Below, piece by piece: positions 2,383 through 63,797 of a stretch of DNA of 64,000 bases. The first letter of the stretch is position 1; each line of letters starts with the position of its first letter. The stretch lies in NCBI RefSeq assembly GCF_048403405.1, contig NZ_CP183129.1. One strand, written 5' to 3'. This DNA comes from Escherichia coli (GTDB taxonomy: Bacteria > Pseudomonadota > Gammaproteobacteria > Enterobacterales > Enterobacteriaceae). The translations under genes and the position numbers were made by a program. The notes under the pieces are model-generated. The model had not been told where the DNA came from. It was given only the letters and a program-made list of their open reading frames with translations, and ran no database searches.

Positions 2383-3396
2383 ATGAATACTGAAGCCACG
2401 CACGACCAAAATGAAGCACTTACTACCGGCGCTCGCCTGCGTAATGCTCGCGAACAACTAGGACTTAGTCAGCAGGCCGTTGCCGAGCGACTTTGCCTGA
2501 AGGTTTCCACGGTACGCGACATTGAAGAAGATAAGGCACCCGCCGATCTTGCTTCAACATTCCTGCGCGGATATATCCGCTCTTATGCGCGTCTGGTACA
2601 TATTCCAGAAGAAGAACTGCTGCCAGGGCTGGAAAAGCAGGCTCCACTTCGGGCTGCAAAAGTTGCGCCGATGCAGAGTTTTTCCCTCGGTAAACGCCGC
2701 AAAAAACGCGACGGCTGGCTGATGACCTTCACCTGGCTGGTGTTGTTTGTGGTTATCGGCCTGAGCGGTGCCTGGTGGTGGCAAGACCACAAAGCTCAGC
2801 AGGAAGAGATCACCACTATGGCCGATCAATCTTCGGCGGAATTGAGCAGTAATAGCGAGCAGGGGCAGAGTGTTCCGTTAAATACGTCGACAACTACAGA
2901 CCCGGCTACAACGTCCACGCCGCCAGCGTCTGTGGATACTACCGCAACCAACACGCAAACACCTGCCGTAACTGCGCCAGCACCAGCTGTTGATCCGCAA
3001 CAGAATGCGGTTGTTTCGCCTTCGCAGGCAAATGTTGATACCGCCGCGACCCCGGCACCAACGGCAACAACAACGCCAGATGGTGCTGCGCCGTTGCCAA
3101 CCGATCAGGCTGGCGTGACCACGCCGGCGGCTGATCCGAATGCGCTGGTGATGAACTTTACTGCCGATTGCTGGCTGGAGGTCACTGATGCTACCGGTAA
3201 AAAACTGTTTAGCGGGATGCAGCGTAAAGACGGTAATTTGAATTTAACCGGCCAGGCACCGTATAAACTGAAAATTGGTGCGCCAGCCGCAGTACAGATC
3301 CAGTATCAAGGGAAACCTGTCGATCTGAGTCGTTTTATCAGAACTAACCAGGTTGCGCGTCTGACCCTCAATGCCGAACAATCACCGGCGCAGTAA
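2383..3396 (+). CDS. rodZ: cytoskeleton protein RodZ
   Basis: 337-aa ORF; N-terminal HTH, TM segment, Pro/Thr-rich linker; matches E. coli RodZ N-terminus. Confidence 0.9.
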
Positions 3397-3422: not shown

Positions 3423-4541
3423 ATGCATAACCAGGCTCCAATTCAACGTAGAAAATCAACACGTATTTACGTTGGGAATGTGCCGATTGGCGATGGTGCT
3501 CCCATCGCCGTACAGTCCATGACCAATACGCGTACGACAGACGTCGAAGCAACGGTCAATCAAATCAAGGCGTTGGAACGTGTTGGCGCTGATATCGTCC
3601 GTGTCTCAGTACCGACGATGGACGCGGCAGAAGCGTTCAAACTCATCAAACAGCAGGTTAACGTGCCGCTGGTGGCTGACATCCACTTCGACTATCGCAT
3701 TGCGCTGAAAGTAGCGGAATACGGCGTCGATTGTCTGCGTATTAACCCTGGCAATATCGGTAATGAAGAGCGTATTCGCATGGTGGTTGACTGTGCGCGC
3801 GATAAAAACATTCCGATCCGTATTGGCGTTAACGCCGGATCGCTGGAAAAAGATCTGCAAGAAAAGTATGGCGAACCGACGCCGCAGGCGTTGCTGGAAT
3901 CCGCCATGCGTCATGTTGATCATCTCGATCGCTTGAACTTCGATCAGTTCAAAGTCAGCGTGAAAGCGTCAGACGTCTTCCTCGCTGTTGAGTCTTATCG
4001 TTTGCTGGCAAAACAGATCGATCAGCCGCTGCATCTGGGTATCACAGAAGCCGGTGGTGCGCGCAGCGGGGCGGTTAAATCCGCCATTGGTTTAGGTCTG
4101 CTGCTGTCTGAAGGCATTGGCGACACGCTGCGCGTATCGCTGGCGGCCGATCCGGTTGAAGAGATCAAAGTCGGTTTCGATATTTTGAAATCGCTACGTA
4201 TCCGTTCGCGCGGGATCAACTTCATTGCCTGCCCGACCTGTTCGCGTCAGGAGTTTGATGTTATCGGTACGGTTAACGCGTTGGAGCAACGCCTGGAAGA
4301 TATCATCACTCCAATGGACGTTTCGATTATCGGCTGCGTGGTGAATGGCCCAGGTGAGGCGCTGGTTTCTACACTCGGCGTCACCGGCGGTAACAAGAAA
4401 AGCGGCCTCTATGAAGATGGCGTGCGCAAAGACCGTCTGGACAACAACGATATGATCGACCAGTTGGAAGCACGCATTCGTGCGAAAGCCAGTCAGCTGG
4501 ACGAAGCGCGTCGAATTGACGTTCAGCAGGTTGAAAAATAA
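3423..4541 (+). CDS. ispG: 4-hydroxy-3-methylbut-2-en-1-yl diphosphate synthase (IspG/GcpE)
   Basis: 372-aa [26 protein letters not shown]...; C-terminal CPTCSR Fe-S motif. Confidence 0.95.
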
Positions 4542-4651
4542 TAACGTGATGGGAAGCGCCTCGCTTCCCGTGTATGATTGACCCCGCATGGCTCCCGAAA
4601 CATTGAGGGAAGCATTGAGGGTTCATTTTTATATTCAGAAAGAGAATAAAC

Positions 4652-5926
4652 GTGGCAAAAAACATTCAAGCCATTCGCGGCATGAACGATTACCTGCCTG
4701 GCGAAACGGCCATCTGGCAGCGCATTGAAGGCACACTGAAAAACGTGCTCGGCAGCTACGGTTACAGTGAAATCCGCTTGCCGATTGTAGAGCAGACCCC
4801 GCTATTCAAACGTGCGATTGGTGAAGTCACCGACGTGGTTGAAAAAGAGATGTACACCTTTGAGGATCGCAATGGCGACAGCCTGACTCTGCGCCCTGAA
4901 GGGACGGCGGGCTGTGTACGCGCCGGCATCGAGCATGGTCTTCTGTACAATCAGGAACAGCGTCTGTGGTATATCGGGCCGATGTTCCGTCACGAGCGTC
5001 CGCAGAAAGGGCGTTATCGTCAGTTCCATCAGTTGGGCTGCGAAGTTTTCGGTCTGCAAGGCCCGGATATCGACGCTGAACTGATTATGCTCACCGCCCG
5101 CTGGTGGCGCGCGCTGGGTATCTCCGAGCACGTAACTCTTGAGCTGAACTCTATCGGTTCGCTGGAAGCACGAGCCAATTACCGCGATGCGCTGGTGGCA
5201 TTCCTTGAGCAGCATAAAGAAAAGCTGGACGAAGACTGCAAACGCCGCATGTACACTAACCCGCTGCGCGTGCTGGATTCAAAAAATCCGGAAGTGCAGG
5301 CGCTTCTCAACGACGCTCCGGCATTAGGCGATTATCTGGACGAGGAATCTCGTGAGCATTTTGCCGGTCTGTGCAAACTGCTGGAGAGCGCGGGGATCGC
5401 TTACACCGTAAACCAGCGTCTGGTGCGTGGTCTGGATTACTATAACCGTACCGTTTTCGAGTGGGTGACTAACAGTCTCGGCTCCCAGGGCACCGTGTGT
5501 GCAGGCGGTCGTTATGACGGTCTGGTGGAACAACTGGGCGGTCGTGCAACACCGGCTGTCGGTTTTGCGATGGGCCTCGAACGTCTTGTATTGTTAGTAC
5601 AGGCCGTTAATCCGGAATTTAAGGCCGATCCTGTTGTCGATATATACCTGGTGGCTTCAGGTGCTGATACACAATCTGCGGCTATGGCATTAGCTGAGCG
5701 TCTGCGTGATGAATTACCGGGCGTGAAATTGATGACCAACCACGGCGGCGGCAACTTTAAGAAACAGTTTGCCCGTGCTGATAAATGGGGGGCCCGCGTT
5801 GCTGTGGTGCTGGGTGAGTCTGAAGTGGCTAACGGCACAGCAGTAGTGAAGGATTTGCGCTCTGGTGAGCAAACGGCAGTTGCGCAGGATAGCGTAGCCG
5901 CGCATTTGCGCACGTTACTGGGTTAA
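4652..5926 (+). CDS. hisS: histidine--tRNA ligase
   Basis: 424-aa ORF, GTG start, [18 protein letters not shown]...; class II aaRS motifs. Confidence 0.95.
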
Positions 5927-31204: not shown

Positions 31205-31789
31205 TTATTGTTTGTTTTTTTCGTTCTGGTTGATGACAAATTCAATGTAACTTTCGATCTTTGCTTTCTCGGTTTCGGGTAACAATGCGTAGCGCGAGCG
31301 GTCATAGTTGATAGTCGCAGGGTCGTGCGGGTGAATCAGTAATTCATAGCCATGACGCCCGAATGCGGATGCAACATTCTCCAGGGTGGAAATGGAAACG
31401 CTGACCTCATTGTTTAACAGGCGGCTGATTGTCACCTGGGCGACGCCGGATGCGCGGTGTAGTTTTCCCTGCGTTGAAAGGTCGCGGCTTTCGCTCATCC
31501 AGCGTTCCAGGTTGTGAGCAGCCAGCTGACCTATATCACTCGGGCCGACAGGCTGAAAACCTTCCTGAGAAAGCGAGCGATCGATATCAAGCCAGTTACG
31601 GGGTTTATTGGCGGCAGCTTCAATTTTTCGCGCAACCTGGTCGCCGATAACCTTCTTGCCAAGAGCCCAGCGGTTTACCAGATTTGCCTGAGTTCCAAGT
31701 TTTTCTGCCATCCGCGTCTGAACACCATTGAATTCACGGTCGATCAAGTCGTTGAGATTTTGCCTGCGGACGTCCTGGATACTTTTCAT
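31205..31789 (-). CDS. prophage repressor candidate, tandem HTH (XRE-type), no LexA-like peptidase domain
   Basis: 194-aa ORF divergent from cro-like gene; two HTH-like segments (TRMAEKLGTQANLVNRWALGKK and ASGVAQVTISRLLNNE); no Ser-Lys autocleavage domain recognisable. Confidence 0.65.
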   Translation of the reverse strand: MKSIQDVRRQNLNDLIDREFNGVQTRMAEKLGTQANLVNRWALGKKVIGDQVARKIEAAANKPRNWLDIDRSLSQEGFQPVGPSDIGQLAAHNLERWMSESRDLSTQGKLHRASGVAQVTISRLLNNEVSVSISTLENVASAFGRHGYELLIHPHDPATINYDRSRYALLPETEKAKIESYIEFVINQNEKNKQ

Positions 31790-40702: not shown

Positions 40703-40779
40703 TGGCGTGGCATGCAGGATTCGAACCTGCGACCAACCGCTTAGAAGGCGGTTGCTCTGTCCAACTGAGCTAATGCCAC
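40703..40779 (-). tRNA. tRNA-Arg (anticodon UCU), phage-encoded, CCA end encoded
   Basis: Reverse complement GTGGCATTAGCTCAGTTGGACAGAGCAACCGCCTTCTAAGCGGTTGGTCGCAGGTTCGAATCCTGCATGCCACGCCA folds as cloverleaf; anticodon loop CTTCTAA; T-arm GGTTCGAATCC; close to E. coli argU. Confidence 0.85.
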
Positions 40780-57929: not shown

Positions 57930-58169
57930 TTTCTGGCGGTGAGCAAACTCCTTCTCCGTCAGCTGGAAGATGCGTTCGGGGGCATCAGGTAAAATATCCT
58001 GATACCCGCGAAGCAGATAGGGGGAGGAAGCGGACCCTGAAACGCATGGTGAGCGACAACTATCTCCTGAATTTCAGGGCGATCAAGAACTCTTGTGAAG
58101 GCATCTGGGTGTTGAATGATCTCGTTACTTAGCCCTTCCTCAACTTCCTCGAACTCAGTTTCTTCGTTA

Positions 58170-58496
58170 TCACTTGGTTGCCCAATAGATTTTTGCATAT
58201 TTGTCGAAGGACATTCCTTTAGCTTCTGGTTTTCCTCTTGCATTTGAGTTTTTCCCTGTCACTATTGCCCATTTTCCGCCAGCAGGCGCTGCAATTTTTT
58301 TTCCGTTCTTTACTATATATTCAGCATAAACACGATTTTCTGACCGTCTGAGATCGTCTCCGACCATATTCATGTCTCTTGATATAACTTTGACGACAGA
58401 GTCTCGGTTTAAAGCCTTGGCATAGTTGGAGCCAGGAACGATACCCAAAGGGGTGCCAGACTCTATAGCCAGCTCCTTGACATATCTTCTGCTCAT
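58170..58496 (-). CDS. hypothetical protein (possible small DNA-binding protein)
   Basis: 108-aa ORF from ATG 58496 (MSRRYVKELAIESG...); a perfect TTACC-N5-GGTAA site lies 22 bp upstream. Confidence 0.4.
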   Translation of the reverse strand: MSRRYVKELAIESGTPLGIVPGSNYAKALNRDSVVKVISRDMNMVGDDLRRSENRVYAEYIVKNGKKIAAPAGGKWAIVTGKNSNARGKPEAKGMSFDKYAKIYWATK

Positions 58497-58517
58497 ATGA
58501 ACCTCAACCAATCGACT

Positions 58518-58532
58518 TTACCAATCGGGTAA
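58518..58532. promoter_or_regulatory. perfect TTACC-N5-GGTAA palindrome
   Basis: TTACCAATCGGGTAA upstream of the 58496 gene. Confidence 0.5.
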
Positions 58533-58617
58533 TTTTAAACATGAGTATAATGCTTTTAACTGCAACGAGTGTAAACAATTATTGATAATTGTAGGCACAT
58601 CCCTGTGCCGCCGCCCG

Positions 58618-59310
58618 TCAGAAGAACCCTGCTTTGTCGTTGATGTACTCCGCGTGCGTCTGGATATCACGCAGGCATTTGCTCACACCGACGATGTAGC
58701 AGAACATGGTGGTCAACTCCGCCGCCGCGCCCGATACGTCGTGCCCGTCTTCCTGTAACTGGTTTAGCAGATTCATCAGCAGTGAGTTCTCCGTCAGGCC
58801 GAGAACACCAGACGGCGAATGAATCAGGCTGCGGTAGCCGGGCTTCAGTGGGGCGCTGTAGGTTTTGTTCTCTACCTTCATTGCCTGCATCACTGCTGAT
58901 GCTGTGGCGTTGGCTACCTGGTCGGCAACCATCTTTATGCGTTCTTCCTGCGGGAGCGAGTTTTTAATGTAACTTCCGGTGCGGCGGATCTGAGGAAGAA
59001 CCTCACCTGTAACCCATTCAAGAAATCTGAATGCTCTCGTTCCCTCAGTCATTGCCTCTTTGCAACGCAGAATAAGGATGTAGAGACCTGATTCTGAAAC
59101 GATGGATAGTTCTTGTATTCCACCAGGGGTCTGTATTGAATACAGCCCCTTTTTGTTCCAGCCTTTTTTATCAAGTTTTCTCGCTTGTGTAACATCAATA
59201 TTCAAAGCATTGCACACATCTTTGGTGACAAACCAAGGTTCTCCGTCAATCATGAACATACGGATCTGGCAGGATGACTCAAAGGAAAAGATGGAAGGTT
59301 TGGTATTCAT
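58618..59310 (-). CDS. antirepressor, Bro-N domain plus C-terminal antirepressor domain
   Basis: N-terminus MNTKPSIFSFESSCQIRMFMIDGEPWFVTKDVCNALNI is a Bro-N/KilA-N-type signature; C-terminal domain has a paralog at 60693-60950. Confidence 0.7.
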   Translation of the reverse strand: MNTKPSIFSFESSCQIRMFMIDGEPWFVTKDVCNALNIDVTQARKLDKKGWNKKGLYSIQTPGGIQELSIVSESGLYILILRCKEAMTEGTRAFRFLEWVTGEVLPQIRRTGSYIKNSLPQEERIKMVADQVANATASAVMQAMKVENKTYSAPLKPGYRSLIHSPSGVLGLTENSLLMNLLNQLQEDGHDVSGAAAELTTMFCYIVGVSKCLRDIQTHAEYINDKAGFF

Positions 59311-59577
59311 AGCGATCACCTTTGTAGTTAGGTTAATCACCACCGCTGAGACCAATCAGATGGTGGTGAACTGTGCAGAGTTGGTCTTACCGGCTACAAA
59401 GGAACCCGGCGCACCTTTCGGTGCCCCCACACAGCCCACCATAGAATAGGTGCGCTTTACACATAAAAAAACCGCTTATGCGGCATATGTGCCTCTGTAG
59501 TAATCCGGGAGACCAATCCCGGCACTGGATTTTGCCAGTGCCCGATTACTATGGCACAAGAGGAGTGCAATGTAAAT

Positions 59578-59592
59578 TTACCGAAAAGGTAA
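59578..59592. promoter_or_regulatory. perfect TTACC-N5-GGTAA palindrome about 270 bp upstream of antirepressor
   Basis: TTACCGAAAAGGTAA. Confidence 0.5.
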
Positions 59593-59753
59593 TAATAAAT
59601 GCATAACTCACGTTATTTCAACCCTATATGGTTTGATTTATCCCATTTCAGAAAATACCTGCCTATTTTTTTGCCAGTATGCGTATACTTTCGATAGAAT
59701 GTTTACCCTAGAGGTAGTTGGGGGTGCCCGTGAACACGAAGAGAGCTACAGTA

Positions 59754-60173
59754 ATGCAGCATTTGAGGAAATCAGAAAAAAATAAAGACCATGAAATATT
59801 GAGTAAGGCCATTGTTCGGGCTTCCAATAATACTGTTATACCTCATGCTGAAGAGTCTGGACAGAAATTTCTTATTCGGTATTTCACTGAAAATAGTGCA
59901 GTTGAGGAGATTTTAAAACATCAGGGAGGGGAATTTAAATGTGGAAAACTGGCAGATTATGTTCGTCGTGAAACGTCTGAACAAGAAGTATATTATGCTG
60001 ATATTAATCATAAGTCAGGTGTGAAAATTGTAATAGGCTATTACACAACTCCCAAAAATGTTATGCATGAGGTCCCAAAGATGTCCGTCGAGAAATCTCA
60101 TGCAATCTCGCGCAGGATGTTTGCACGCACTGCCGAAGATATGGCTCAGGAGCTCTACGACGATGCTGAATAA
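59754..60173 (+). CDS. hypothetical protein, candidate partner of YafO-like toxin
   Basis: About 140 aa from ATG 59754; stop overlaps the start of the downstream gene (ATGCTGAATAA); low GC. Confidence 0.5.
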   Translation: MQHLRKSEKNKDHEILSKAIVRASNNTVIPHAEESGQKFLIRYFTENSAVEEILKHQGGEFKCGKLADYVRRETSEQEVYYADINHKSGVKIVIGYYTTPKNVMHEVPKMSVEKSHAISRRMFARTAEDMAQELYDDAE

Positions 60174-60668
60174 ATTCCAGGGGTTGGTTCACCCTGGAAT
60201 TTTTGGGAAGGACCCTGAGCTAATACCTATCAAAAACGCGTTCATAGATCACTGGCGCTACGGTCATCATAAGGATTTCGGAAAGGACACTCTGTTTCGG
60301 GATCCACCGAAAGAAATGCTGGAATATCACATACGCCACGTTCACGTAAACATCGGAAACTATACTGACAAGTTTGGTGAGAGCGGTACGGACAATGCTG
60401 GAAAAACTGGGCGTCTGGGAAGAAAGACAAGACCACTAACAAGCATAAAAAGATCCCAACCAGTGACGTGTATGTGATTTATCTGGTCACATCTGAACGC
60501 CATGCCTTCCTTCTGGATTATTGGGATGAACCAGCACATAAGACAGTAGAAATTGACGAGCAGAAGCAAAAATTAGTTGTCGAGTGTGACAGAATTTTGC
60601 GGCTGAAAAAGTTAGAATCCATGCCGCGCGATGCTAGTTTGTGGGACCCAGAATTTTACGACTGTTAA
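60163..60668 (+). pseudogene. YafO-like toxin gene interrupted by a frameshift (or sequencing error)
   Basis: N-terminal part in one frame (to 60477: ...FGKDTLFRDPPKEMLEYHIRHVHV) and C-terminal part in another (60381-60668: ...VYVIYLVTSERHAFLLDYWDEPAHK) both resemble E. coli YafO as I recall it; frames overlap 60381-60477. Confidence 0.45.
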
Positions 60669-60669
60669 T

Positions 60670-60694
60670 GGCCGCTTTCGCGGCCTTTAAATTT
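60670..60694. terminator. terminator hairpin (ggccgctttcgcggcc), copy 2
   Basis: Identical 16-bp hairpin to 57419-57434, followed by tttaaattt. Confidence 0.65.
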
Positions 60695-60950
60695 ACCGGG
60701 TTTGTTTTCGTAATTGTTCGGCACAATAGTCGAGATGTGTTTGCAGATCCCGCATAGACATCTGTGAGCTGGTGACGTAGTTAATCAGTGCAGTCAGTTC
60801 GGCAAGTGGGCCATCGACATTAAATCCATCCTTATCGAGATCCCGGAGTAATTTCATCAAGTGCGATCCCTCCACCAGTGACCTGACGCCTCCCGGCGTG
60901 TGAATCCTTTCGGTAAATCCGTCTTCCAGTGGATAGTGATACTGCTGCAT
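60693..60950 (-). CDS. free-standing antirepressor C-terminal-domain paralog
   Basis: About 85 aa from internal ATG (MQQYHYPLEDG...); shares L..LL..L..DG..V.G..AELT.....Y.......RD.QTH..Y pattern with the C-terminus of the 58618-59310 antirepressor. Confidence 0.5.
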   Translation of the reverse strand: MQQYHYPLEDGFTERIHTPGGVRSLVEGSHLMKLLRDLDKDGFNVDGPLAELTALINYVTSSQMSMRDLQTHLDYCAEQLRKQTR

Positions 60951-61026
60951 CTTATCTTCTCCATGCAATAACTGTATGTTTATACAGTAACAAATAATTT
61001 GTTTGCTATCCAGCACGTTTTGCAAA

Positions 61027-61041
61027 TTACCTGAAAGGTAA
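61027..61041. promoter_or_regulatory. perfect TTACC-N5-GGTAA palindrome between ant-C paralog and tailspike
   Basis: TTACCTGAAAGGTAA; ATGTGGTT motif at 61074-61081. Confidence 0.5.
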
Positions 61042-61145
61042 TATCTATTCGTATTTACAGCCTTTCTATCCATATGTGGTTTTTCAGGTAATAGAATAAC
61101 CAGATATGCGGCGCAACGGGTGCTGCGACTATCTGGAGATTTAAC

Positions 61146-63797
61146 ATGACGGTCTCAACCGAAGTTGACCACAACGAATACACTGGTAACGGAGCTACGA
61201 CATCATTTCCGTATACCTTCCGTATTTTCAAAAAATCCGACCTGGTTGTTCAGGTGTCTGACCTGAACGGGAACGTAACAGAATTGGTTCTGGATACTGA
61301 CTACACAGTAACCAATGCTGGAGGATATAATGGCGGTAATGTAATTCTGTCGAAGGCGTTGGCTAACGGTTATCATATTTCTATATCACGAGAGCTCCCG
61401 GTTACGCAGGATACTGATTTGCGTAATCAGGGTAAGTTCTTCGCTGAGGTACATGAAGACGCGTTCGATAAACTGACAATGCTTATTCAAAAGTGTTTTT
61501 CATGGATGAGGTTAGCACTTATAAAACCAAGCATTCTGGCTAACTATTATGATGCAAAAAATAATAAGATATCAAATCTAGCAAATGCCACTGACAGAAA
61601 CGATGCTGTCAATAAAGGTTATGTTGATGATCTTTTTACTGGAGGTGTAACGCCTACACCTAACAGCGTTAAAAACGATATTTTTACAAATCACCAAAGA
61701 AAGATTGTAGCTACGATGCCGCTTCTTTTTCCTGAATATGATGCGATTATGGCTGCTAACCCGTCAGCAACTTATATGTATCCTCAAGGATTCTGCGTTA
61801 GCGAAGATTTGATATACATCACTTATCCATTTGAGCCTAAACAGACGAATAATGTCGTCGCAGTATTTAACATATCTGGTATTTATCAAGGTTATTTCTA
61901 TGTTCAGGCTGGCGGCCCAGGCTTCGCTGCTGAAGGAATCGTGGTTACGTCAGACTATGGCCCCAAAAAAATGTTTGTTGGTCACACAAACGGAATACTG
62001 CGTGAATTTAATATGGAGGGGGCATTATACGGAAGCAATCTGCCTCTTGTACAAAACCATGATGTTGGATTATTCAACCAGTTCAGCTACAGAAGAGGTA
62101 TATGGCTCGTTGAGCAGAATGCGCCAGAAGTAGGACAGAAAATCACAAGAACTGTACTTGCAGTGTTCGACAGTGGTTTCAATCGCCTGTCAACTATAAC
62201 GCTGCCGTTACATGATGTTGGGTATGTAACTAAAAGCACCTCACCTTATGCGCCTTATTTCAACAAGCGTCAGGGTATTGCGGTAGGTGATAACTACTTT
62301 GTCTGCGGCTATGGCGGCTTCATAGCTGATGGGGCAGGAAGCGCAGGATATAACGAATATCAGGGCAGCAAAGTTTTTAACCCTGACGGTACAAAGCGAA
62401 CTGAATCAATGCTTCATCCTCAGGCCATGATGGATTTAATGAAAGCCGCAGGATTGAACGTCACTCGCATAGAAAATGAAGGCGTTTGTGTTTCTCAGGA
62501 TGGAAAATCCATTTATTCACTTTACATTCATCAGGAAAGAACTGGCTCTGAACCTTACAATTCAGGTTTGGTTATTTTCGAAGATTTCTCCACTGATAAA
62601 GATGCTATCGATTTTACACCTGCATCCAGGCTTTACCGCGGATTTGATATCGATCACGCGAGCATTGGGGTATATCCCCGTAGTGCGAAGGGGATTGTTA
62701 ACCCTGTAGATGGTACGTTGTTCACTAACATGACTGAAATTCTTCGCTATATGCAGGAGATGAGTCAGAAGGCATTTAATTTTTACACAGGGACTGTCAG
62801 CATTGCTGATATATCTGGCGTGGCAATCCCTTCCAGCACATATGTTGAAATACTGAATGCGAATAATCAGACTTTTATAGTCAACTATTATTCATCTGAT
62901 AGTGGTATTAGTTATTTGGTTGCAACTAATCCTTCTGGTGACTTTGTATTTGTGCGCCAGCGACCGGCACAGTGGGCATCTAACTTAACCATTCAGCAAA
63001 ACGCAGATCCTGATACAAACCAATTAAACCGCATCACTGCATCATCATATGCCGGTGCAACTACAAACTCTCAGAAAATATTGGTCCTTGACCAGCAGGC
63101 TACAGCTAGCGCAAATAGCTTGGTATTGGGCGGTAGTTCTTCTGTGTTTAGGTCTGCCACCACGGTGGATATTGCATGCAACAGCGACCCGACAGCATTG
63201 GGAGGAACCATACGCTGGCGGTTTTATGATACAGGTCTTCGCCCGTTTGCTGACAATACCTATAATTTTGGTCAGGCATCGTTTCGTATTAAAGACGCCT
63301 ACTTTGCAAATGCCCCAACCGTTTCATCAGATGCCACGCTGAAAACCAATCCCGAGGCAATATCAGATTTAAGTGAAATGCTTTCTTCTGATAGAGACAG
63401 CATTCTTGATGCCTGGGGCGATATTTCTGTTGTGGCGTATCGATGGCTCGACGCTATATCCATGAAGGGCGATGGTGCCAGATGGCATTTTGGCGTCATG
63501 GCTCAGCAGGTAAGGGATGTATTCTTGGCGCACGGAATTGATGGAACCAGATTTGGCCTTCTTTGCTATGACGAGTGGGATGATATTTTTGAGCCGGTAA
63601 TCGCGACTAAAGAGATTACCGATACGTCTGGTGAGTTGGTCACCGTCGAATATGACACCGGAGAACAGAGGCTGGTTAAAAAAGCGGGTAGTTCATGGGG
63701 TATACGGCCTGACCAGTGCGCTTGGCTTGAGGCTGCATATCAGCGCCGTCGATGCGATCGTATTGAAGAGCGACTCGAACTATTGGAATCAAAATAA
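61146..63797 (+). CDS. tailspike/tail fiber with N-terminal podovirus adaptor domain and C-terminal intramolecular chaperone (peptidase S74-like) domain
   Basis: 883-aa ORF; N-terminus resembles T7 gp17 N-terminal domain pattern; C-terminal ~130 aa resemble self-cleaving chaperone domains of endosialidase-type tailspikes. Confidence 0.8.
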   Translation: MTVSTEVDHNEYTGNGATTSFPYTFRIFKKSDLVVQVSDLNGNVTELVLDTDYTVTNAGGYNGGNVILSKALANGYHISISRELPVTQDTDLRNQGKFFAEVHEDAFDKLTMLIQKCFSWMRLALIKPSILANYYDAKNNKISNLANATDRNDAVNKGYVDDLFTGGVTPTPNSVKNDIFTNHQRKIVATMPLLFPEYDAIMAANPSATYMYPQGFCVSEDLIYITYPFEPKQTNNVVAVFNISGIYQGYFYVQAGGPGFAAEGIVVTSDYGPKKMFVGHTNGILREFNMEGALYGSNLPLVQNHDVGLFNQFSYRRGIWLVEQNAPEVGQKITRTVLAVFDSGFNRLSTITLPLHDVGYVTKSTSPYAPYFNKRQGIAVGDNYFVCGYGGFIADGAGSAGYNEYQGSKVFNPDGTKRTESMLHPQAMMDLMKAAGLNVTRIENEGVCVSQDGKSIYSLYIHQERTGSEPYNSGLVIFEDFSTDKDAIDFTPASRLYRGFDIDHASIGVYPRSAKGIVNPVDGTLFTNMTEILRYMQEMSQKAFNFYTGTVSIADISGVAIPSSTYVEILNANNQTFIVNYYSSDSGISYLVATNPSGDFVFVRQRPAQWASNLTIQQNADPDTNQLNRITASSYAGATTNSQKILVLDQQATASANSLVLGGSSSVFRSATTVDIACNSDPTALGGTIRWRFYDTGLRPFADNTYNFGQASFRIKDAYFANAPTVSSDATLKTNPEAISDLSEMLSSDRDSILDAWGDISVVAYRWLDAISMKGDGARWHFGVMAQQVRDVFLAHGIDGTRFGLLCYDEWDDIFEPVIATKEITDTSGELVTVEYDTGEQRLVKKAGSSWGIRPDQCAWLEAAYQRRRCDRIEERLELLESK

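Follow-up and report, generated by a model that had tools for sequence, protein, structure and literature searches.

A stretch of 64,000 nucleotides (nt) of the Escherichia coli chromosome (contig NZ_CP183129.1), referred to here as the window and used for all coordinates, contains a prophage of about 38 kb that is inserted directly after guaA and carries two antirepressor genes, a large one and a small one (ant). The prophage genes are arranged in the order integrase, leftward early genes, repressor (rep), Cro-like gene, replication genes, and terminase and virion genes, which are followed by the region under study, the tail-fibre gene and the lysis genes. Over the 2.9 kb that surrounds the two genes, identity with Escherichia phage EC.W1-9 is 99.1%, and parts of this segment are 91-96% identical to phiV10, vB_EcoP_ZX5 (ZX5), TL-2011b and other ε15-like Uetakevirus podophages. 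Of 5426 complete E. coli genomes, 558 contain related sequence. The prophage is thus of the phiV10/ε15 type (Uetakevirus), and the two genes lie in its accessory (anti-)immunity region. All components of the locus belong to described families, and near-identical phages have already been sequenced and partly characterised. An initial annotation had described the two genes, a palindrome ahead of each and a structured leader; a perfect LexA box, two curated RNA families and a plus-strand toxin-antitoxin insertion are added here (Table 1).

Table 1. Features of the antirepressor locus and of the repressor gene (window coordinates; a point marks features without a strand)
Feature	Position	Strand	Description	Basis
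Bro-N/Ant-fold fusion antirepressor	58618-59310	-	230 amino acids; Bro-N about 58993-59265, Ant-like domain about 58636-58866
ant	60693-60950	-	85-amino acid stand-alone antirepressor, ortholog of SPC32H Ant by homology	PDB 5D50 chain E, PHROG 450
LexA (SOS) box	60970-60989	-	TACTGTATAAACATACAGTT; core CTGT-N8-ACAG at 60972-60987, exact match
rep	31205-31789	-	194-amino acid repressor; two helix-turn-helix domains, no peptidase domain	PDB 5D50 chain A
Rep operator (putative)	61026-61042	.	ATTACCTGAAAGGTAAT; perfect 17-bp palindrome between ant and the divergent tail-fibre gene
Rep operator (putative)	59577-59593	.	TTTACCGAAAAGGTAAT on + strand; abuts the -35 hexamer of the leader promoter
Third Rep operator (putative)	58517-58533	.	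Directly downstream of the antirepressor gene, after a predicted promoter at 58547-58575
Sigma-70 promoter (predicted)	59548-59576	-	TTTACA, 17 nt, TG-CATAGT; start about 59541, the first IsrK base
IsrK-like small RNA	59465-59541	-	Ends in an intrinsic terminator	RF01394, 74.7 bits (gathering score 50)
C4 antisense RNA	59359-59446	-	Full model, 1-87	RF01695, 78.6 bits (gathering score 45)
a1	59510-59516		UUGGUCU; loop of second IsrK hairpin
b1	59492-59500		CUACAGAGG; IsrK linker
b'	59394-59402		CCUUUGUAG; loop of second C4 hairpin
a'	59381-59387		AGACCAA; C4 junction
Target region	59319-59369	-	Hairpin tcaccacc (59362-59369) / ggtggtga (59337-59344) displaying a2
a2	59349-59355		UUGGUCU; loop of downstream hairpin
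b2	59319-59327		CUACAAAGG; overlaps the Shine-Dalgarno sequence, ends 8 nt before the ATG at 59310
Inserted toxin-antitoxin module	59754-60669	+	139-amino acid upstream gene 59754-60173; YafO-family toxin 60163-60669	RefSeq naming
GC-rich hairpin	60670-60685	.	GGCCGCTTTCGCGGCC; between the convergent ant and YafO genes	Terminator scan

The large gene encodes a protein whose residues 16-106 match Bro-N (PF02498, E = 4.2e-13) in Pfam and whose C-terminal part resembles the product of the small gene. The initial annotation had proposed that the C-terminal regions of the two proteins are paralogous, and a BLASTP alignment of the pair bears this out, with 32 identities over 74 amino acids (43%, E = 1e-20) between residues 149-222 of the large protein and residues 2-75 of the small one. 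The C-terminal part of the large protein also matches chain E of PDB entry 5D50 (E = 9e-14, residues 149-225 on 3-79), the entry for the Rep-Ant complex of Salmonella phage SPC32H. In PHROGs, the large protein matches family 130, "anti-repressor Ant", and its residues 147-228 match family 450, the family of the shared domain, which is labelled "unknown function" and also occurs within several "anti-repressor" families. Pfam holds no family for the domain common to both proteins; the sole match of the small protein in that database is a spurious one to DUF724 (E = 0.005). An AlphaFold model of residues 147-230, built from an alignment of 21 sequences, reached a predicted local distance difference test (pLDDT) score of 82. 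In a Foldseek search of PDB this model retrieved only Ant chains of 5D50 (5D50_G and 5D50_H; probability 1.00, template modelling score 0.60-0.73), with an E-value of only 0.02. The C-terminal domain is accordingly modelled as having the Ant fold. ORF4 of ZX5 is 80% identical to the large protein overall and 100% identical through the C-terminal half, and its overexpression lowered the lysogen titre from 10^9 to 10^6 (PMC9782041). The large protein is thus a Bro-N/Ant-fold fusion whose role as an antirepressor has experimental support from a near-identical phage.

The small gene encodes a protein that aligns with 5D50 chain E over nearly its whole length (E = 1.4e-46, residues 2-84 on 3-85 of 86), matches PHROG 450 (E = 7e-48) and is 86.7% identical to the product of the SPC32H gene annotated "ant". 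Its matches were confined to PHROGs 450, 15539 and 1760 and, in PDB, to the 5D50 Ant chain. The stand-alone Ant is conserved at 83-100% across phages of E. coli, Salmonella and Enterobacter. By homology, the small gene is a full-length ortholog of the LexA-controlled ant gene of SPC32H and not a fragment. Members of the phage group from Salmonella carry the stand-alone gene only, and two or three Ant-domain genes are usual in members from E. coli, Enterobacter and Klebsiella. The Bro-N gene of phiV10 lacks 16 bp that are present in the window (tctgctaaaccagtta; about 3140-3190 of the extracted phiV10 locus), and the resulting frameshift removes the Ant-like domain and leaves an annotated 194-amino acid p23 and a 29-amino acid p22. 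The whole cassette of leader and fusion gene is missing from the Salmonella relatives, and phiV10 has a disrupted Ant domain; an accessory role is therefore more likely for the large protein than for the small one. A search with the C-terminal domain of the fusion alone returned 17 short proteins (54-104 amino acids) and none of the known fusions, and is unfit for counting fused against free forms; it did retrieve free forms of the fusion-type sub-type of the domain in Klebsiella and Raoultella.

The LexA box of ant ends 21 nt upstream of the ATG and has 17 of the 20 bases of the consensus TACTGTATATATATACAGTA. phiV10, ZX5 and SPC32H all keep the box, with differing interior bases, and a Klebsiella phage has it with one mismatch, in the left half-site. 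Selection on the LexA half-sites is indicated because the interior bases differ between phages while the box stays. The core CTGT-N8-ACAG occurs only three times in the window. LexA control of the Bro-N gene was also considered and was ruled out, there being no CTGT-N8-ACAG within 11 kb on its side. Two promoter candidates precede ant, TTGCAA-17-ACAAAT beside the operator and TAGCAA-18-TATAAA overlapping the LexA box, and both score below the scan threshold. Downstream of ant lies a GC-rich hairpin; hairpins like GGCCGCTTTCGCGGCC also follow ant in SPC32H and the Bro-N gene in phiV10.

The repressor of the prophage, Rep, matches 5D50 chain A over its full length (E = 4e-42) and is 100% identical to the repressors of ZX5 and phiV10. 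Pfam assigns only helix-turn-helix families to it and no Peptidase_S24. Since Rep is without a self-cleavage domain, DNA damage cannot inactivate it directly. The Rep of SPC32H is reportedly left uncleaved in the SOS response, and the ant gene of that phage is said to be repressed by LexA. The tetrameric Ant reportedly binds two Rep dimers and frees them from DNA.

The palindrome that the initial annotation had placed ahead of both antirepressor genes was found at each (59578-59592 and 61027-61041) and again at 58518-58532. Its core, TTACC-N5-GGTAA, is present in 10 exact copies in the window against 0.01 expected, and the 17-bp form, ATTACC-N5-GGTAAT, has 17 sites with at most two mismatches against 1.8 expected. 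Two sites lie downstream of rep (31070 and 31132, 62 bp apart), one lies between rep and the Cro-like gene (31844), one after the Cro-like gene (32229), and a pair precedes the next early block (34132 and 34194, also 62 bp apart). Further sites are found before the terminase gene (37956 and 37974), the head genes (41101) and the integrase gene (26048). The region under study holds four, at 58517, 59577, 59702 and 61026, the first of which precedes the next minus-strand genes, one at 58170-58496 and one of the DUF2335 family. Four further sites with two mismatches, including those at 5713, 15387 and 53132, may be chance matches. In SPC32H, 18 sites were counted where 1.0 would be expected; rep has three to its left and three to its right, and another lies at the position equivalent to 61026-61042. 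In the Klebsiella phage ST512-KPC3phi13.3 the geometry of operator, -35 and -10 hexamers is the same as at 59577-59593; phiV10 has the palindrome at the equivalent leader position, but the sequence of its -35 region differs. The Reps of the prophage and of SPC32H are 42% identical and have in common an NLVNRW stretch in the N-terminal helix-turn-helix domain.

From its position and its clustering on both sides of rep, here and in SPC32H, the palindrome is most likely the Rep operator, and its position suggests that it is probably also an operator for the Cro-like protein. The palindrome was absent from the non-Uetakevirus phages that carry the RNA cassette described below, and therefore belongs to the host phage and not to the cassette. 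If the sites are read in this way, many scattered transcription units would come under Rep, an arrangement that resembles C1 of P1 more than CI of lambda. The spacing of 62 bp between the starts of paired sites (31070/31132 and 34132/34194) recurs in SPC32H (33603/33665 and 35971/36033), which suggests that a Rep tetramer binds with a set geometry. When the E. coli and the Salmonella phage are compared, Ant is 87% identical and the operator motif is the same, whereas the partner Rep is only 42% identical, an uneven conservation for a binding pair. Between the operator upstream of ant and the tail-fibre gene (61043-61100), five phages whose hosts belong to three genera have an unchanging block, ATTCTATTACC..AAACC..ATATG.AT. 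This block holds one operator half-site and a TAGAAT hexamer resembling a -10 element on the plus strand, and may be a promoter or control site of the tail-fibre gene.

A long structured leader of about 270 nt had been claimed for the large gene, and structure prediction agrees: the palindrome is 268 nt from the ATG, and the 237-nt leader folds at -99.4 kcal/mol (z = -5.9 against shuffled sequences). The leader contains an IsrK-like RNA and a C4 antisense RNA in tandem, both above the gathering scores of their Rfam families. The terminator of the IsrK-like RNA, GCCGCATAAGCGGT followed by a run of seven T (U in the RNA), was located at 59471-59484 by the terminator scan, and the CACCACCA motif is present at the 3' end of C4. 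A third family, RF03163 (c4-a1b1), overlaps the first two hairpins of IsrK with 39.9 bits, short of the gathering score (46.7) set for that family; the same bases pass as isrK. Although isrK (RF01394) and c4-a1b1 model the same bases, Rfam does not group them in one clan (the C4 clan is CL00128). The a' element of C4 is complementary to a1 and to a2 over 7 bp each, and b' pairs with b2 over 9 of 9 bp and with b1 over 9 bp including one G-U pair. The loop of C4 is in this way complementary to the Shine-Dalgarno sequence of the antirepressor gene. These results favour the RNA-level control suggested in the initial annotation, but not the comparison with antisense control of the P22 type that went with it: a permissive Rfam scan (E <= 1, 58000-61500) gave no match to a sar-like RNA on the opposite strand, and the two regulatory RNAs that did turn up share the strand of the gene. 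The 8-bp inverted repeat reported just upstream of the ribosome-binding site is real, but it is not an independent element, as its 5' arm is the 3' strand of the closing stem of C4 and its loop displays a2. The hairpin and the closing stem are mutually exclusive because they use the same strand.

The tandem of IsrK and C4, about 25 nt apart, is also present in phiV10, the Klebsiella phage, Hafnia phage yong2, APSE-1, VT2-Sakai, SfV and Gifsy-1, and related leaders were found by blastn in 225 phage records. The genome paper of APSE had already noted both RNAs upstream of a Bro-N gene. The pairing elements of the window and of these seven phage loci were compared all against all by a search for ungapped helices, which was limited to unpaired elements since the stems of C4, IsrK and the downstream hairpin resemble each other and make whole-RNA duplexes unrealistically long. 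At seven of the eight loci no non-cognate helix is longer than the cognate ones, for b'-b2 and for b'-b1 alike; VT2-Sakai departs from this, in that none of its b'-b2 helices stands out from background. Changes in a' are matched by changes in a1 and a2, and three a types (GACCAA, CGCCAA and GUCUCAA) and at least six b types occur among the eight loci. As read from the sequences, this co-variation in trans is that expected of a working c4-type system; co-variation of the a and b elements is the known basis of heteroimmunity between P1 and P7 (PMC12197685). The 8-bp hairpin is kept in seven of the eight loci, and APSE-1 and Gifsy-1 each have one arm substitution. An open reading frame (ORF) that starts at a conserved AUG (C4 position 5) has 28 codons in the window and ends 45 nt before the antirepressor ATG; across the eight loci its length varies from 15 to more than 64 codons (no stop within the analysed region). 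No further C4 targets were apparent in the window, where matches to b2 with at most one mismatch occur at the level of chance (12 against 11.6 expected); within the locus, the b2-like matches are b1, b2 and b' only.

In several records, proteins are annotated over the IsrK/C4 region ("ash family protein" or "immunity region"; ZX5 1720-1833, yong2 988-1671 and SfV 825-1661 of the extracted loci). These annotations are probably spurious, or N-terminal over-extensions of the downstream gene. The Klebsiella phage ST512-KPC3phi13.3 shares the layout of the window, in the order tail-fibre gene, small Ant gene, unrelated 85-amino acid gene, operator, IsrK, C4 and antirepressor gene (306-2191 of the extracted locus). 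With a' AGACCAA and b' CCUUUGUAG, its C4 is of the specificity type seen in the window, although the identity of its Rep is only 45%.

We consider it probable that the prophage encodes two antirepressors with a common Ant fold for binding Rep, each wired to a different input, namely LexA and the SOS response for the small protein and Rep together with the RNA leader for the fusion. In the lysogen, LexA, and probably Rep, would hold ant off, and Rep would also hold the cassette promoter off from the operator that abuts its -35 hexamer, acting as a lock on transcription; the 231-nt leader would form a second lock, at the level of RNA. Transcripts that escape would mostly stop at the IsrK terminator. 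In those that read through, a' of C4 would pair with a2, and b' with b2 at the ribosome-binding site, so that translation would be blocked. Upon DNA damage, cleavage of LexA would free the ant promoter, and the Ant produced would bind Rep and take it off its operators. Loss of Rep would open all Rep-controlled units including the cassette, and abundant IsrK carrying the decoys a1 and b1 would then compete for C4 and permit translation of the fusion antirepressor. The fusion would reinforce the inactivation of Rep, or serve as an anti-immunity factor on infection of an immune cell, or both; anti-immunity factor is the name under which phiV10 annotates it. The identities of the parts are well supported by homology, RNA family membership, complementarity with co-variation, and the positions of the sites. 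Binding of Ant to Rep in SPC32H, antirepressor activity of the fusion in ZX5 and action of IsrK on the C4 region in Gifsy-1 have been demonstrated in these relatives and would apply here by analogy. The occupancy of the operators by Rep, the order of events and the feed-forward step are inferred.

Several points weigh against this circuit. No promoter hexamers can be assigned to ant without ambiguity, and about 40 bp separate its LexA box from the operator further upstream; control of ant by Rep is therefore less certain than control by LexA. With only 43% identity to Ant, the Ant domain of the fusion could have a different repressor as its target. The transcript start, read-through of the terminator and processing of C4 are all inferred for the window, and the minimum-energy fold of the full leader pairs a1 and b1 with a' and b' in cis. 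The translational coupling step described for Gifsy-1 cannot carry over, because the 28-codon ORF stops 45 nt short of the ATG, whereas occlusion of the Shine-Dalgarno sequence by b' can.

In the initial annotation the small protein had been regarded as a truncated copy of the C-terminal domain of the large antirepressor, acting as a dominant-negative modulator or decoy. The proteins do share a domain, their genes lie behind the same palindrome, and mixed oligomers are conceivable, as the Ant of SPC32H reportedly works as a tetramer. This proposal was not sustained and is now very improbable. The small protein spans the full length of the Ant in the crystal structure (5D50 chain E, E = 1.4e-46), and none of the 12 Salmonella phages listed for the group has a large paralog beside it. 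It is conserved at 83-100%, against 43% identity to the domain of the large protein, and its gene has a LexA box of its own; in phiV10 it is the domain of the large protein that is broken. The fusion may instead have been imported together with the IsrK-C4 cassette and target only the repressors of other prophages, or act on DNA through its Bro-N domain. In keeping with an import, 225 phage records hold both the cassette and an antirepressor-type gene downstream, and these records span unrelated groups, among them Stx phages, SfV, APSE and Gifsy-1; moreover, the Ant-like domain is divergent (43% identity), and phiV10 survives with the domain disrupted; antirepressors that act in trans on foreign repressors have been documented in Salmonella (PMC3121763). 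An exclusively foreign target is nevertheless unlikely, as the C-terminal domain is specifically of the SPC32H Ant fold and stands alongside a 5D50-type Rep. A second place for the Ant domain was found only in phage records that also hold a stand-alone Ant gene, and within the phage collection nearly the same records contain Ant homologs and Rep homologs. In ZX5, whose Rep is identical, overexpression of the fusion cut lysogeny 1000-fold (PMC9782041).

The palindrome, for its part, could be the site of another phage regulator, such as a Cro-like protein or an activator of late genes, and the copies that precede the terminase, head and integrase genes would fit a global activator. We rate this as quite unlikely, since in both phages rep is flanked on either side by two to three copies, the classic pattern of left and right operators (OL/OR), and a 17-bp dyad suits dimers of helix-turn-helix proteins. 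In addition, NLVNRW is identical in two Reps that have the same motif at only 42% overall identity, and a Cro-type protein would be expected to use the operators of the repressor in any case. The reading of two Ant-fold antirepressors with separate inputs is preferred. Prophages of this type are common among E. coli genomes, and the distinction between an SOS trigger and an RNA-gated accessory gene matters for the prediction of their induction, for example under antibiotics. The locus is a worked example of induction circuits of temperate phages built from interchangeable modules (a repressor-binding domain alone or fused to Bro-N, a portable IsrK and C4 cassette behind the phage's own operator, and a host LexA box), and it changes little in principle.

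The two antirepressor genes are separated in the window by an insertion of 1.1 kb of plus-strand DNA that carries the toxin-antitoxin module. The insertion is absent from phiV10, ZX5 and SPC32H and was found in 39 of the 558 matching E. coli genomes (those covering at least 80% of the query). Compared with the intact 168-amino acid copy in EC.W1-9, the YafO toxin gene is frameshifted by a 1-bp deletion near 60391, and could be a pseudogene or the product of a sequencing error; the 139-amino acid gene is intact. In ZX5 and phiV10 the stop codon of ant is followed directly by the operator and the IsrK promoter, and in these phages transcription that starts at the ant promoter might in principle continue into the cassette, whereas the insertion separates the two in the window. 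The best promoter-like site for the toxin-antitoxin pair at 59671-59718 on the plus strand (TTGCCA, 18 nt, TAGAAT) is followed at once by TTTACCCTAGAGGTAGT, which matches the Rep operator with two mismatches. The inserted module may also be under the control of Rep, or TTTACCCTAGAGGTAGT may be the antitoxin's own operator. Elsewhere in the prophage a tRNA lies between the terminase and head genes (40706-40779, minus strand); both SPC32H and a near-identical prophage have a tRNA annotated as tRNA-Arg at the equivalent place. Upstream of the prophage lies a small RNA of the host, sroE (4541-4632, plus strand).

The closest parallel to the core of the switch is the Rep-Ant system of SPC32H (PDB 5D50 and 5D4Z), for which a summary of the tetramer mechanism of Ant is available (PMC9638917). 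Both phages have orthologs of Ant and Rep, an ant gene next to the tail-fibre or tailspike gene and an operator dispersed over the genome, and the palindrome, a TTGCA-type hexamer and the LexA box stand upstream of ant in the same order. In contrast to the prophage in the window, SPC32H is without a second Ant-fold gene, the IsrK/C4 cassette and the toxin-antitoxin insertion. ZX5 resembles the window more fully, with an identical Rep, the same genomic position, the leader and the small ant gene, but it lacks the insertion, and its C4 and IsrK are of another specificity type (a' = ACGCCAA). The ZX5 paper names ORF4, ORF12 and ORF21 as related to lysogeny and does not mention LexA (PMC9782041); in the ZX5 record the small gene is annotated as a hypothetical protein, and an "ash family protein" coding sequence covers the C4 region. 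Other small antirepressors under the control of LexA are Tum of phage 186, AntC of N15 and GfoA, GfhA and GftA of the Gifsy phages (PMC3121763). They also represent a non-cleavable repressor inactivated by a small protein from a LexA-repressed gene, but no sequence relationship to them was detected in the PHROGs and PDB searches of the small protein.

The leader corresponds to the immI region of P1 and P7, which is composed of an operator-controlled promoter, a1/b1, the c4 antisense RNA, a2/b2, icd and ant (Citron & Schuster 1990; summaries in PMC7313666 and PMC12197685). Common to both are a regulator on the same strand as its targets, two short target elements of which one is on a ribosome-binding site, an upstream a1/b1 copy (here putative), an antirepressor gene downstream, and an operator of the phage repressor (here putative) at the promoter. 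No icd-like gene is present here; C4 and the ATG are only 48 nt apart, and b2 is the Shine-Dalgarno sequence of the antirepressor gene itself. The a1/b1 segment ends here in an intrinsic terminator and would form a separate small RNA. The Ant protein of P1 is unrelated to the antirepressor in the window, with its Bro-N domain and Ant fold.

In Gifsy-1, the isrK promoter drives the antirepressor gene anrP (280 units against 3 without it), the greater part of the anrP message goes untranslated, and translation rises about 140-fold when IsrK is provided in trans; in the published model, translation of an upstream 45-codon ORF (orf45) is coupled to the start of the antirepressor (PMC4825925). The isrK-orf45-anrP-isrJ locus and the window have in common the order of IsrK, about 25 nt, C4 region and antirepressor gene, as well as an intrinsic terminator with presumed read-through. 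They differ in that the stop of orf45 overlaps the antirepressor start, whereas the ORF in the window ends upstream of it. The window has no isrJ and a different C-terminal domain in its antirepressor, and its promoter carries the Uetakevirus operator. The first AUG of orf45 (nt 107) is C4 position 5 and the second (nt 119) is C4 position 17. When the extracted Gifsy-1 locus (1195-1435) was compared with 59310-59541 of the window, the published compensatory pairs isrK-G28/orf45-C162 and isrK-G31/orf45-C159 fell exactly on the a1-a' helix. Because these compensatory pairs are a1-a' base pairs, the IsrK-orf45 interaction of Gifsy-1 is the a1/b1-C4 interaction. The IsrK paper (PMC4825925) mentions neither c4 nor P1; among the papers searched, none equating the IsrK locus with the c4 system was found. 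Two of these papers mention both RNA families, and one of the two, the APSE paper, treats them separately.

A joint proposal, that an RNA-gated second Ant-fold antirepressor and a LexA-gated Ant converge on one Rep and that the IsrK locus of Gifsy-1 is the c4 device of P1, is offered tentatively, as the conjunction of both parts is somewhat doubtful. By its first part, Uetakeviruses of E. coli, Klebsiella and Enterobacter have added a second antirepressor to a switch of the SPC32H type. If this is true, the SOS response and the balance of IsrK and C4 would form a feed-forward or commitment circuit, and mixed oligomers of Ant and Bro-N-Ant would be possible. The most valuable aspects of the locus are the domain common to two differently wired antirepressors and the equivalence of IsrK/orf45 and a1b1/C4. 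If the second part is true, IsrK would be the a1/b1 element with a terminator added, orf45 would be the C4 RNA, IsrK would activate by titrating C4 and not through a mechanism specific to the ORF, and two regulatory systems that have been studied separately in Gifsy-1 and in P1 would be one, with a simple testable model.

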